A stretch of 64,000 bases of DNA from Malacoraja senta. Lineage: Eukaryota. The notes beneath the pieces are model-generated. The model was not told the origin of the DNA and ran no database searches. It saw only the letters and a program-made list of their open reading frames with translations. Position numbers and translations under genes: made by a program. The DNA lies in contig CM075987.1 of the NCBI GenBank assembly GCA_038087875.1, forward strand, positions 23,314,001 to 23,378,000. The letters run 5' to 3'. Shown here in pieces: positions 30,019 to 62,451 of this stretch (position 1 is the stretch's first letter; the number at the start of each line of letters is the position of its first letter).

Positions 30019-30232
30019 GGACACAAAATGCTGGCGTAACTCAGCGGGACAGGCAGCATCTCTGGAGATAAGGAATGGGTGACGTTTCAGGTCGAGACCC
30101 TTCTTCAGGCTGATCCCGACCCGAAACGTCACCCATTCCTTCTCTCCAGAGATGCTGCCCGACCCGCTGAGTTACTCCAGCATTTTGTGTCTACCTTCGA
30201 TTTAAACCAGCATCTGCAGTTCTTTCCAACAC
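30019..30232. mobile_element. Palindromic Penelope-derived repeat pair
   Basis: Inverted arms of ~85 bp. Confidence 0.8.
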
Positions 30233-30389
30233 AGATAAATGTTTAATGGGTGAATGTATAATGCGGGTACAAACTACAGTGTAAGATGGAGGTATGAGGT
30301 GGATGGATGGATGTAGACAGGGTCAACGTACAACAGAAAGGTTAAAGAACATGTTGTACACAGTGAGTGAATGTATTAACAAGCATCAT

Positions 30390-33980: not shown

Positions 33981-34430
33981 ACGGCGTTGCAGCGGTAGAG
34001 CTGCTGCCTTACAGCGCCAGGGACCTGGGTTCGATCCTGACTACTGGTGCTGACTGTACGGAGTTTGTACGTTCTCCCTGTGACCGCGTGGGTTTTCCCG
34101 GGTGCTACGGTTGACTCCCACACTCCAAAGACGTGAAGGTTTGTAGGATGTGTAGGAAGGAACTGCAGATGCTGGTTTAAACCGAAGATGGACGCAAAAT
34201 GGCTGGAGTAACTCAGCGGGGCAGGCAGCATCTCTGGAGAGAAGGAATGGGTGACGTTTCTGGTCGAGACCCTTCATCAGAGATGCTGCCTAGGTTTTGT
34301 AGGTTAATTGGCTTTGGCAAAAACATTGTAAATTGCCCAAAGTGTGTAGGATGATGTTAGTCTAGCGCAGACTCGGTGGGCCGAAGGACCTGTTTCCATG
34401 CTGTATCTCCAAACTAAACTAAACTAAACA
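33981..34430 (+). mobile_element. HE1-like V-SINE interrupted by a Penelope-derived unit (~34150-34290)
   Basis: The SINE resumes after the insertion, with TTTGTAGG duplicated. Confidence 0.82.
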
Positions 34431-45690: not shown

Positions 45691-45832
45691 GACACATGTT
45701 TTGTCTGAAGAAGGGTCTCGACCCGAAACGTCACCCACTCCTTCTCTCCAGAGATGCTGCCTGTCCCGCTGAGTTACTCCAGCTTTTTGTGTCTATCTTC
45801 GGTTTAAACCAGCATCTGCAGTTCCTTCTCAC
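45691..45832 (+). mobile_element. Short Penelope-derived unit with a hammerhead-like motif and a 16-bp TSD
   Basis: ACATATATGTTTTGTG occurs at 45675-45690 and 45833-45848; CTGAAGA-AGGGTCTCGACCC-GAAACGTC lies at 45705-45732. Confidence 0.78.
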
Positions 45833-47714
45833 ACATATATGTTTTGTGTTATGTCCTGCATTTATACAAGCTGTCCAATTGCCCAGCCCAGCTGTGAACT
45901 CAATGCTCATGTACCCAGTGTCATGGGATTCCTCAGATACATGTGTTCCCCATCAACTTCAGTTAAACTGGACAAATAGCGAGGGAGACTCCAGACCTTT
46001 GGGAAAGACTTTGACAGGTGAATTTTATTCCGATCCCATTCCCTGGTTGAATGTTTGCTCATTGTTGTCACGGTTGCTAGGCAGTGCATTACTCAAACGC
46101 GAGCCCTTCTTGGCTTTCGATCTTAACACAGCTGCCAGATTCTAGACAGAGCGAGCGTCTGAGCCCTCCGTCATCCTCCATGTGGTGAGCGAGCTGAGAG
46201 CTGGAAGTCGACCCGGAAAATCCTCAACATGCTGCTCAACAAGAGAGGATGTTTAAAGTTTCACCGGCGCAAGGCTTGAGTGTCAGGGAAGACTGTCAGA
46301 CTAAGACAGAAACATTCCTAATACAGGAATTGTTCGCAGCATGAGGTGGTTATTGGATAGGAATGAAAGGAAACAAGTGACAGAACATGGTCTGAGCAGT
46401 GTTTGAACATCACACGTGGATCACAACATGGAATCAGGCCATTTGGCCCTTCTGCTCCATGGTGGTATTCACCTTTTATGCAAATTTATAGCCCCCATTG
46501 CGTCTAACTTACCTTCTCCCTGTTCTATTCAGCTCCTTTCCCGTCAGTCCCAACTTTATACCCCAGCACCTCTGCTCCCCTCTTGGTGCCGGTGGGTGTA
46601 TGGAACGAGCTGCCGGAGGAGGTAGATGAGGCAGGGACGATTGCAAAGGTTAAGAAACAATTAGCCATGTACATGGATGGGACAGGTTTACCTGCACCTC
46701 CACGTGCCTATCTCAAACTCTCTCAAAACACCACTACCGTATCGGCCTCCACCGCCACCCCTCTGTTGTGTTCCAGGCCCCCCAACACCCTCTGTATTAC
46801 AAGACCTGCCCCCACACAACTCCATTAAACTTTCCCCCTCTCACACAAAAGGGTGGTGGGTGTATGGAACGAGGTGCCAGGGGGAGGTAGTCGAGGCAGG
46901 GACGATTGCAAAGTTTAAGAAACAATTAGACATGTACATGGATAGGACAGGTTTAGAGGGATATGGGCCAAACGCAGTCAGATGGGACTAGAGTAGATGG
47001 GACATGTTGGTTAGTGTGGGCAAGTTGGGCCGAAGGGCCTGTTTTCACATTGTATCGCTCTATCACTCTCAGTTTACAGCTACGCCCTCTAGTGTTGGAC
47101 ATCTCCACCCTGGGGGAAAAGGATCTGACTGTCAGCTCCATCTATACCACTCATAATATTATGTACTTCTATCATATTTCTCCTCAACCTCTGATGTTCA
47201 ATGAGATACTTTGAAAGTACTTTGTCCCCTGTAAAGCAGTTCAGGAGCTGGGATTCTGAAAGGAGCTTTGCTGAACATTTTCTGCTTTTCGTGAGTGATG
47301 ACAGAGCAATGTAGCTCGAGGCCAGAGCCCACGCATGACATACATGCTGCAGAAGACACCAGCAACATACTTTAACTGTGAGAAGTCGCTTGCGGGTTAG
47401 CACAGAGTCATGGAGCAGGGCAGAAACGGATTGCTTCAGTAGAAGCCTGGATCACACAGCACACATTAGGCTGTAGATAGACACAAAATGCTGGAACAAC
47501 TCAGCGGGACAGGCAGCATCTCAGGATAGAAGGTGACCCATTCCTTCTATTCAGAGAGGATGCCTGTCCCGCTGAGTTACTCCAGCATTTTGTGTCTATC
47601 TTCAGTGTAAACCAGCATCTGCAGTTCCTTCCTATACAAACTCAAAACTGTAACGTCCATGTGCTTCCCTTCAGCAAATTAGGCTATTAAACAGTACAAC
47701 CTCAAATAAGCTCT

Positions 47715-47853
47715 TCTTCTTCCTCTTGCATGTGGCGTGCACAGCCTAAAGTTGTGAGGCAACTTGTTCTGTTTGAACTTCTGTTTGTGCACGCCAGGTT
47801 GATTGCATTCGTCGAAACCAGGTGGACCACGTGAAGGTTGCAATCTCCCACCC
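47715..47853 (-). mobile_element. 139-bp non-autonomous retroelement (Ingi/Vingi- or RTE-type) with a 12-bp TSD and a (GAA)n tail
   Basis: CAAATAAGCTCT occurs at 47703-47714 and 47854-47865; a 3' stem-loop and a GAAGAAGAA tail are present. Confidence 0.82.
47801..47853 (-). ncRNA. Predicted minimal HDV-like self-cleaving ribozyme
   Basis: GGGUGG GA GAUUGCA ACC UUCACGU GGU CCACCU GG U UUCG A CGAA UGCAAUC. P1, P2, P3/L3, P1.1, a tiny P4 and a CGAA J4/2 are present in HDV order. Confidence 0.75.
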
Positions 47854-47902
47854 CAAATAAGCTCTGAACTATATAGACTATTATTATTATTATTACACTA
47901 TT

Positions 47903-48300
47903 TTTTTTTAAAATATTTTAATTTTATTAGAAGTAAGTACAATTGTATACAATCATATTTTCATAATACCTTTTATGTACAGCTTCTTATTTAAAAAAAA
48001 AATTTGAAATAAAGAAGAAAAAGAAAAAAGTTAGATAATGAAAAATAGAAAAATGTGAGATATATAGTGTGTGAAAAAGAAAAATAAAGAATGAAAAAAG
48101 AAAGTTGAGACATAGAAAATAGAAGAAAGAGAATAAAAGAAGAGAAGAGAAGAAAAGAAAATAGAAGGAGATCATTTATAATCTTGACCATCCGCAGTCA
48201 CGGATTAGCTTTTACACCTGTTTTGCACCATATGTTTCCAAAAAGACGACAAATGGAGACCAACTCGTTATGAATTGGTCAAATTTATCTATTAGGAGGA
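47903..48300 (-). mobile_element. L1-like LINE 3' end with TSD
   Basis: Poly-T start and an LLIDKFDQFITSWSPFV remnant; TATTATTACACTATT occurs at 47888 and 48301. Same family as 62115-62451. Confidence 0.8.
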
Positions 48301-48856
48301 TATTATTACACTATTAATGTGTGTTTGTCTTTTGTACGTACGTATGTGTGCTTGTGTGTGTGTGTGTATATATATATATTTATATATATGATCTGTATAT
48401 ATGTGTATTTGTGAGTATGTATATATATGGACGCACACTAGACTTATTTTTCGTGTTGATTATGTTATTTACAGTGTGCTATGTTCATTTATTCTGTTGT
48501 GCTGCTGCATGTAAGATTGTCATTGTTTTATCTGGGACATATGACAATAAAACTCTCTTGGCTCTTGACTCTCTATTAAAACAAGTAATGATGTGGTGCA
48601 TGGGCTGCAGTTAATCAGCAACAAATTCAAGTGTCTCAATTAAGACATTGCCAGCAACTTCAAGCCAACAATTAATTGAGAAACCTTTTCTTAACAGTTG
48701 GATCATTTTCCAGTTTGCTAAGTTCCAACATAAACGTTGACTTGGCACCTTGCAGAAGCACCAGGCCTCAGCCACTTGGCACATTCCGATTCGCACTACA
48801 CATCTGCCTACCTCTGCTCAACATGGGCCAAGCTCACGTTTAACTTCTCCAAGGTA

Positions 48857-61872: not shown

Positions 61873-62114
61873 CATTCGGCCCATCTAATCCGCCATTCAA
61901 CCATGGCTGATCTATCTCCCCCTCTCAACCCCAGTCTCCTGCCTTCTCCCCAGAACCCCTGACACCCGCACTAATCAACAATCTGTCCATCTCCACCTTA
62001 AAAATACCCAATGACTTGGCCTCCACAGCAGTCTGTGGCAATGAGTTCCACAGATTCACCATCCTCTGACCAAAGAATTTCCTCCTCGTCTCCTTTGTAA
62101 AGGGTCGTCTTTTT

Positions 62115-62451
62115 CCTCCTAATAGATAAATTTGACCAATTCACAACGAGTTGGTCTCCATTTGTCGCCTTTTTGGAATCATATGGTGCAACACAATTGT
62201 AAAAGCTAACTCGTGACTGGGCGAGGGATGGTCAAGTTTATAAATAAGATCTCCTTACTTCTTTTTTCTTTTTCTTCACTTTTCTTCTTTTCTTCTCTTT
62301 TTCCTATTTTCTATTCTTTAACTTTCTTCTTTCACTCTCTATTTTTCTTTTCCACACACTATATATCTCACATTTTTCTATTTTTCGTTATCTAACTTCT
62401 TTTTCTTTTTCTTCTTTATTATAAATCTTTTTTTTAAAAGATGAAAATAAA
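62115..62451 (+). mobile_element. L1-like 3' end nested in a CR1 fragment
   Basis: AAAGG(G/T)TCGTCTTTT is duplicated on both sides; the CR1 sequence resumes after 62467. Confidence 0.78.

Follow-up and report, generated by a model that had tools for sequence, protein, structure and literature searches.

Retroelements whose RNAs are processed by a ribozyme have been documented mainly in insects (R2, RTE) and trypanosomes (L1Tc/NARTc), with a few other invertebrates besides. The question raised by the locus studied here is whether the genome of Malacoraja senta holds such a system as well. The window (the whole stretch of DNA analysed: 64,000 nucleotides (nt) of contig CM075987.1, assembly GCA_038087875.1, positions 23,314,001 to 23,378,000 of the forward strand) carries on its minus strand a short insert that an earlier reading of this one copy (hereafter the original prediction) took to be a promoterless element resembling a short interspersed nuclear element (SINE), headed by a ribozyme like that of hepatitis delta virus (HDV) and borrowing a long interspersed nuclear element (LINE) for its insertion. 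We conclude from sequence that a real, structurally conserved HDV-like ribozyme, predicted to be self-cleaving, heads a non-autonomous retroelement. The feature in the window is, we think with good confidence, a decayed copy of a SINE-like, non-autonomous retroelement of ~140 nt, of the kind without long terminal repeats (non-LTR), with the HDV-like ribozyme as its sole head. The fold, the covariation and the genomic 5' end are read directly from the DNA, and the self-cleavage chemistry of the head is what we infer.

The SINE family and its ribozyme head

Searching the window's own genome (1.94 Gb, 6,182 contigs) at the DNA level with the window copy gave 2,077 first-look candidates, the best 40 of which are 93-95% identical to the query and begin, nearly all, at query nt 1. 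The exact head occurs in at least 3,922 copies genome-wide, and recognisable target site duplications (TSDs) bound 52 of the 69 copies collected, with a modal length of 11-12 bp, so that the multicopy, TSD-bounded family with precise 5' ends expected under the original prediction does exist. The precision of that end held up, but its placement did not. Ahead of the exact 29-nt head stands G in 3,655 copies and some other base in 267 (93% G); the base upstream of the previously assigned G1 is G in 26 of 32 aligned copies, among which the base at -2 is unconserved; and in 31 copies with an exact TSD core the duplication abuts this G in 13, may extend into the G-run in 13 and falls one base short in 5. 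On these counts the true start of the element is 47854, one base further upstream than proposed. In the window copy itself the boundary is ambiguous, as 47854 is at once the last TSD base and the family's G1. Target choice among the 52 TSD-bearing copies follows T-Y|A (T at -2, C or T at -1 and A at +1, each in 38 of 52), and family tails are (GAA)n behind a consensus terminus CAUACGCAA(GAA)n.

Two subfamilies can be told apart. Most copies of subfamily A differ at 0-2 of 128 positions from the majority sequence (30 loci), and three (L012, L020 and L023) are identical to it, and by this measure the subfamily looks very young. Subfamily B, marked by A8, by G32 (which gives U5.G32) and by an altered central loop, is apparently older. 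Elements of this general kind are already known (NARTc, R2 SIDEs, RTE-derived bipartite elements), and the present family is new as far as our literature search reaches: the 22-nt head string is absent from the full texts searched, where no description of the family was found either, with Dfam, Repbase and Ruminski et al. 2011 (RTE ribozymes) lying outside that scope.

The consensus head forms a canonical 54-nt HDV-like double pseudoknot. Helix P1 has 7 bp (G1.U36, G2-C35, G3-C34, G4-C33, U5-A32, G6-C31, G7-C30); the joining segment J1/2 is R8 A9; P2 pairs 10-16 with 48-54 (7 bp) and P3 pairs 17-19 with 27-29 (3 bp); loop L3 reads U20 U21 C22 A23 C24 G25 U26; P1.1 is the single pair C22-G37; P4 has shrunk to U38-A43 around UUCG; and J4/2 is C44 G45 A46 A47, of which C44 is presumably equivalent to C75 of HDV. 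The GG originally assigned to P1.1 does not survive in the consensus, which leaves one G only (G37), and the 6-bp P1 with terminal wobble, correctly read in the window copy, proves to be a mutated state, the family having 7 bp that open with G1.U36.

Re-reading the window sequence recovered the 139-nt minus-strand insert, its 12-bp duplication and every pairing that had been listed (GGGUGG/CCACCU, GAUUGCA/UGCAAUC, and ACC/GGU enclosing UUCACGU, with UUCG and CGAA also present). The body between the TSD copies spans 47853-47715 on the minus strand, its tail letters are AAGAGGAAGAAGA, and its 3' hairpin has arms GGCGUGCACA/UGUGCACGCC with an inner stem AAGUUG/CAACUU. This copy differs at 7 positions from the 128-nt subfamily consensus and reads CCACCUGG in place of the consensus CCACCCUG; the substitutions C35U at position 35 (47820) and U36G at position 36 (47819) leave G1 unpaired, and G1.U36 is thereby lost. 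It fails the strict HDV descriptor described below, which consensus copies pass, and is a mutated relic whose catalysis is probably impaired. Its parts, with ribozyme position n lying at 47855-n, are as follows.

47854..47865, minus strand: upstream TSD copy, 12 bp, AGAGCTTATTTG (from the sequence)
47801..47854, minus strand: HDV-like ribozyme head, 54 nt (from sequence, family consensus, descriptor, fold, Rfam and covariation)
47854-47848 and 47825-47819, minus strand: the two strands of P1 (positions 1-7/30-36)
Positions 8-9 of the head, minus strand: J1/2
47845-47839 and 47807-47801, minus strand: the two strands of P2 (positions 10-16/48-54)
Positions 17-19 and 27-29 of the head, minus strand: the two strands of P3
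47835-47829, minus strand: L3, UUCACGU (positions 20-26)
47818 with 47833, minus strand: P1.1, G37 with C22
Positions 38-43 of the head, minus strand: vestigial P4, UUUCGA
47811-47808, minus strand: J4/2, CGAA (C44-A47)
47811, minus strand: putative catalytic cytosine C44, first base of J4/2 (an equivalent C stands in the LINE ribozyme J4/2, CAGA)
47734..47796, minus strand: long 3' hairpin, element nt 59-121, an 11-bp outer stem UGGCGUGCACA/UGUGCACGCCA plus a 7-bp inner stem (from the fold of consensus copy L012)
47715..47733, minus strand: 3' terminus ACAUGCAA and (GAA)-type tail
47703..47714, minus strand: downstream TSD copy, AGAGCTTATTTG

The strict descriptor was built from general HDV architecture without family-specific helix letters, and requires a G.U pair at the base of P1, a 7-bp P1, a 3-bp P3, a 7-nt L3 with U1/C3/G6, a G after P1, a J4/2 of the form C-N-R-A and a P2 of 6-8 bp. 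It matches consensus copy L012 exactly at G1, and in 637,430 bases of collected DNA (both strands counted) all 38 match positions are family copies. There is no match on either strand of the 64-kb window, and random sequence generated to the same composition by a first-order Markov model yields none in 32 Mb. As the descriptor was written after the sequence had been seen it is weaker as a blind test, but the zero background is unaffected by this. Folding with RNAfold gives, for the 54-mer, a nested minimum-free-energy (MFE) structure that is exactly P1 plus P3, and for the whole element an MFE structure consisting of P2 and the 59-121 hairpin, with P1 in the centroid. On an isolated 76-nt segment only two of 4,227 Rfam families reach E<=10, both HDV-type (RF02682, 15.9 bits, E = 0.29, gathering threshold 44; RF00094, 15.0 bits, E = 2, gathering threshold 50), and both align end to end with the cleavage-site G of the model on G1.

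Variation within the family points the same way. The common variants in a sample of 75 copies are G8A, C31U (giving G6.U31), A32G, G42A (in the P4 loop) and G45U (giving CUAA), and all five keep the fold, against 56 of 162 (35%) possible single substitutions and 30 of 54 transitions, with a joint chance of ~0.02. This is modest support, two of the five being CpG transitions that may recur. None of the positions linked to catalysis (C44, G1.U36, U20/G25) is among the sites that vary in at least 8% of these copies.

Some loci depart from the usual single, complete insertion. At L017 (G000:C1:330459821-330462959) a stretch of 3.1 kb contains three SINE copies, in both orientations and with identities to the window copy of 93.5%, 86.5% and 85.6%; judging from these identities this is a local insertion cluster of copies of different ages. 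At L086 (G000:C9:24867840-24868800) and L033 ribozyme heads run into unrelated sequence or meet the TSD after only ~20 nt, and these are severely 3'-deleted or chimeric copies.

The probable partner LINE and covariation between the two ribozymes

Relaxing the search to the last 15 nt of the SINE led to a second family ending ...AUUCCUUUGGUUUAUGUUU(U/A)AUUCGCAA(GAA)n. This is a LINE whose terminus, ...CATTCGCAA(GAA)n, is like that of the SINE, and whose 3' end consists of the C-terminus of an open reading frame (ORF) reading ...NHVISGCPLYHPPNGAQGLA.IDAETTTWLLNTR.EI* (2,691 candidates for that peptide), a short untranslated region (UTR) and a (GAA)n tail. Its copies contain a reverse transcriptase (RT) domain (RVT_1 match) and an apurinic/apyrimidinic (AP) endonuclease-type N-terminus with the motif GDFNWHHTEWG, public protein relatives of which carry PF14529/PF03372. 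At the 5' end, two copies (L096 and L097) share 2,237 nt at 92% identity from a single start point, and L097 begins GGGAGAG-A-UGUUGGCA-ACC-UGCUCGU-GGU-CUCUCCU-G-(~41 nt)-CAGA-UGCCGAUA, a sequence that fits a relaxed descriptor of the HDV-like fold and has a full P4. Only 32 such 5' regions occur in the genome. Of 22 that were inspected, 8 open precisely with GGGAGAG, a further 6 do so with a single mismatch, and the remaining 8 have been truncated or have diverged; G is never found at -1 in the 14 that carry one mismatch or none, and upstream of them the sequence is unconserved.

Two full-length copies of ~3.3 kb run from this head through the RT and C-terminus to ...CAUU(C/U)GCAA(GAA)n, and their TSDs of 10-11 bp lie at T-C|A and T-T|A, the target signature of the SINE, at these two junctions only. 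The LINE is ~3.2 kb long with one ORF; its frame stays open across the ribozyme from G1 on, and the earliest AUG in this frame overlaps J4/2-P2. From its RTE-like layout (~3.2 kb, single ORF, AP-endonuclease plus RT, microsatellite tail) we would place it provisionally in the RTE clade, and it is likely to be the SINE's partner. A LINE related to the SINE at both ends, which the original prediction had suggested looking for, has thus been found: SINE nt 2-39 and LINE nt 3-43 are 74-78% identical, and the 3' termini, SINE CAUACGCAA(GAA)n and LINE CAUUCGCAA(GAA)n, match at 17 of 18 positions (94%), with sharing confined to nt 2-39 and the last 18 nt of the SINE.

The two heads align gap-free over columns 1-39, and can be compared helix by helix in a table of five SINE and five LINE sequences in which the 3' strand of P2 was placed by position. 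Between SINE subfamily A and LINE copy L104, 18 pairs are comparable: 11 are identical, one has changed on one side and is still paired, six have changed on both sides and are still paired (P1 pairs 4, 5 and 6; P2 pairs 11, 12 and 13), and none is broken. Across the table 184 of 185 cells hold standard pairs in the proposed register (99%), as against 34-46% in controls where the 3' partner was slid along by 1-3 nt. LINE copy L102 has A3-U34, in contrast to G3-C34 in the four remaining LINE copies of the table. P3, C22-G37, U20, G25, G1.U36 and the J4/2 cytosine are all common to the SINE consensus and the LINE ribozyme. We regard this covariation, which had been called for as a check, as our strongest evidence for selection on the double pseudoknot in replicating lineages.

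Pattern searches for longer elements with parts of the SINE at high identity led back to the SINE. The ribozyme 3' end joined to non-SINE sequence gave 290 matches, and the 30 loci read, with 6 more, are all subfamily-B or indel variants of the SINE; the last 25 nt of the SINE with non-SINE sequence upstream, and the SINE hairpin with non-ribozyme sequence upstream, gave 11 matches each, all SINE variants. Other (GAA)n tails sought in the collected DNA proved to be only GAA runs inside an unrelated hairpin repeat. A generic RT profile search (PF00078) gives 159,857 candidates in the genome. An abundant L1-like LINE with a 1,271-aa ORF, ending in AATAAA and poly(A), was considered as a partner and is ruled out by its poly(A) end.

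Several loci add to the picture of the LINE and its surroundings. A second repeat family with a similar terminus and tail, ...ATTTGAAACATGGAAGATGGATACGAAA(GAA)n, is present at L093 (G000:C1:213266200-213268800) and ~10 other places, and may be another element using the same LINE machinery. At G000:C7:27516008-27517717 a LINE 5' ribozyme end stands only ~0.8-1.7 kb upstream of matches to the LINE C-terminal region, which suggests an internally deleted, non-autonomous LINE copy and a possible intermediate towards short elements. At L105 (G000:C1119:336721-336840) a partial direct duplicate of the first 16 nt of the LINE head (GGGAGAGATGTCGGCA) precedes a head starting GGGAGAGATGTCGG..., an arrangement suggestive of a tandem insertion or of duplication at the 5' junction. 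In L094 (reverse complement, nt 1-2000) a truncated LINE copy has upstream of it several open stretches of 80-140 aa belonging to another mobile element.

Proposed mechanism and rival explanations

Since the SINE has no recognisable promoter of its own, it would be transcribed as part of host or neighbouring transcripts, and read-through RNA is indeed seen (below). The ribozyme would then fold into its nested double pseudoknot and cut directly 5' of G1, releasing an RNA that starts at the first base of the element. Finally, the endonuclease and RT of the LINE would nick T-Y|A sites and prime on the GAA-repeat tail by target-primed reverse transcription, leaving TSDs of 11-12 bp. Tail, terminus, TSD length and target motif are held in common by SINE and LINE, and mobilisation in trans of the one by the other is presumed here. 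The original picture of a promoterless SINE-like element with an HDV-like head that borrows a LINE is in these respects supported, its naming of a Vingi/RTE partner staying provisional.

Sequence runs were compared with consensus copy L012: raw poly(A) RNA-seq from one organism (X7, organism C), and contigs from two others (X1 and X2, organism A; X3, organism B). The element is present in contigs of X1, X2 and X3, in some at full length, so the family occurs also under other organism labels. About 6% of the X7 run was covered and gave 1,217 family reads, from both strands, and 95% of them run on into unrelated flanks. Element RNA in this run is mostly read-through of embedded copies, which fits co-transcription and provides no evidence for cleavage. 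The power of the run is low, as both strands are mixed, the RNA is poly(A)-selected and only 34 of the 1,217 reads are at least 99% alike, most coming from diverged copies; a further 471 rows of loose ends stand beyond those listed.

Several observations weigh against a self-cleaving SINE mobilised by this LINE. Besides the preponderance of reads that continue into flanks, X7 reports no position where many molecules begin or end and no processed 5' end; no fewer loose ends occur at its 5' boundary (131+130) than at the 3' one (at least 139+58, among the rows listed), and its 5'/3' loose-end ratio is similar to that of X3, a contig run that is probably DNA. In the suggested check with HDV covariance models, HDV-type families are the only ones to reach E<=10 on the isolated segment, with scores far below the gathering thresholds that define curated membership, and wider scans at E<=10 (window positions 47000-48600; five whole loci) gave no HDV-family match, the 14 weak matches in 47000-48600 being neither HDV-type nor on the SINE itself. 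The Rfam HDV-type models are narrow families in which pseudoknots are not encoded. Within the LINE pieces collected the hairpin body (nt 55-120) has no match, and identity between the SINE and LINE heads is only 74-78%; with so divergent a head and a hairpin body lacking a LINE counterpart, the SINE is not explained simply by internal deletion within the sampled LINE copies. Among the scored LINE copies, moreover, there is no intact ORF, the longest open frames being of 702-703 aa and with stops, which sits poorly with the young appearance of SINE subfamily A. Either rare intact copies escaped the search, or a related LINE supplies the proteins.

It is against this background that the alternatives must be weighed. 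The head could be a conserved, structured but non-cutting module, such as a binding site for LINE protein or an internal promoter, with G1 as the transcription start, an account we consider improbable though not negligible. It would agree with the missing processed 5' end in the RNA-seq and with the sub-threshold Rfam scores, and promoter-driven SINEs typically also have precise 5' ends. Dual-function heads are documented besides: in the excerpts of the sources available, Pr77 of L1Tc is both promoter and ribozyme, and R2 protein binds the R2 5' pseudoknot (PMC3383444, PMC6765202). A pure binding or promoter role, however, would not obviously need all the residues linked to HDV catalysis, and these are kept together in SINE and LINE alike (G1.U36 at the RNA end, U20/G25, C22-G37, the J4/2 cytosine), while neither A/B boxes nor a tRNA-like fold was found in the head. 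Ribozyme and binding or promoter functions are in any case not mutually exclusive.

An ordinary SINE that RNA polymerase III (Pol III) transcribes, with a degenerate head derived from tRNA, 5S or 7SL RNA and an HDV-like fold that is incidental, seems to us very unlikely, even if such heads are the usual ones among SINEs and even if GUUUCGA (positions 37-43) may be loosely like a B-box core. ARAGORN finds no tRNA in 47500-48100, the Rfam scans at E<=10 place no tRNA, 5S, 7SL or small nuclear RNA family on the element, in keeping with the original statement that no tRNA-like A/B boxes are visible, and the homologue of the head is the 5' end of a LINE that codes for protein, not a small RNA gene. 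Chance resemblance in a structurally unconstrained repeat might have been feared when the reading rested on one copy, and the descriptor does postdate sight of the sequence. This explanation is effectively refuted by the empty 32 Mb of random sequence, by six compensatory pair changes between SINE and LINE with none broken (and slid controls of 34-46% against 99%), and by the fact that the only Rfam families reached are HDV-type.

Relation to known ribozymes and retroelements

The self-cleaving head that we favour has parallels among short retroelements. In the parts of the sources consulted, NARTc/RIME of L1Tc/ingi in trypanosomes, R2 SIDEs in Drosophila and RTE-derived short elements are described as keeping a 5' HDV-like ribozyme (PMC3383444, PMC3414825, PMC5786205, PMC6765202), and one of these excerpts lists the ribozyme-carrying LINE clades and describes bipartite non-autonomous LINEs for the RTE, Ingi and R2 clades (PMC5786205). 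Like these short elements as portrayed there, the present SINE is short and non-coding, has the partner LINE's type of ribozyme and its 3' terminus, lacks a promoter of its own and would be mobilised in trans. Unlike the elements of insect ribosomal DNA and of trypanosomes, it is a SINE in a 1.94-Gb animal-type genome, dispersed rather than site-specific; and unlike simple internal-deletion derivatives it has a head with re-paired helices, P4 removed and a 63-nt hairpin body without a LINE counterpart. The partner resembles RTE-clade LINEs in its length of ~3.2 kb, its one ORF, short 3' UTR, microsatellite-type tail and 5' ribozyme. RTE insertions have been associated, in the excerpt available, with a T-stretch ~10 nt upstream of the TSD (PMC6007223), and the T excess at -12 here is weak (26 of 52 TSD-bearing SINE copies). 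The RTE-associated drz-Agam models of Rfam have no match at E<=10 in the scans of the window part, the five loci and the isolated segment.

The closest likeness in the catalytic core is to the CPEB3 ribozyme, a mammalian, intronic HDV-like ribozyme. As far as the portions of the reports available describe it, that ribozyme has G1.U36, a 7-nt L3 (U20-U21-C22-A23-C24-G25-U26), a 4-nt J4/2 (C57-A60, with G58 and A59) and a P1.1 in which C22-G37 is joined by a weak U21-U38 pair (PMC4836649; 10.1101/2022.09.22.508989). On that description the SINE core matches it position for position (G1.U36, U20, U21, C22, A23, C24, G25, U26, G37, U38 and J4/2 CGAA), and C44 of the SINE is equivalent to C57 of CPEB3 (PMC4836649); the mouse CPEB3 primer GTTCACGTCGCGGCC is consistent with this core likeness. 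Unlike CPEB3, the SINE has different helix letters, a P4 of which only a UUCG loop with no more than one closing pair is left, and many mobile copies in place of a single conserved intronic site. The Rfam family RF00622 (CPEB3) is not among the matches at E<=10 in the scans of the window part, the five loci and the isolated segment. Minimal HDV-like ribozymes without P4 are known as the metagenomic drz-Mtgn and the phage theta ribozymes, whose origin and function are described as open in the excerpt available (PMC10879173). Like these, as described there, the SINE ribozyme is a double pseudoknot lacking the P4 domain, and unlike them it forms the 5' end of a retroelement in a eukaryote, where the probable partner LINE has a homologue of it that bears P4.

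It is conceivable, if unlikely, that in this LINE/SINE pair a lineage of CPEB3-type delta ribozymes lives on among the retroelements of vertebrates. The CPEB3 ribozyme, and perhaps that of deltaviruses, would then descend from an exapted insertion, and the SINE would be the first case in nature of a minimal delta ribozyme without P4 to which a role can be assigned, namely definition of the 5' end of a promoterless SINE. The core identity makes the origin of the mammalian ribozyme more testable in any event. What the genome offers is thousands of near-identical 54-nt delta-type ribozyme copies beside a P4-bearing homologue in a probable partner LINE, and thus a natural before-and-after comparison of P4 loss and helix re-pairing; so small and abundant a ribozyme is also a compact candidate for biochemistry. 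The SINE may further serve as a concrete case of doing without a Pol III head. For annotation, the SINE family (at least 3,922 copies) and the LINE are to be masked and classified as one system.

Other repeats surround the SINE copy in the window. A 5'-truncated 3' end of the abundant L1-like LINE lies at 47914-48300 (minus strand), 48 bp upstream of the SINE insertion, and is 97% identical to L083; a second, older fragment of the same LINE, 86% identical, lies at 62113-62420 (plus strand). A hairpin-type repeat of very high abundance, its core resembling ...CTCAGCGGGTCAGGCAGCATCT..., occurs at 47489-47659 and at many other window sites (e.g. 34130-34258, 45727-45828 and 30125-30233). It gives 204 BLAST hits across 319 kb of collected DNA and carries internal GAAGAAGAA runs, and it lies behind the spurious, sub-threshold Rfam matches to microRNA and plastid-UTR families.

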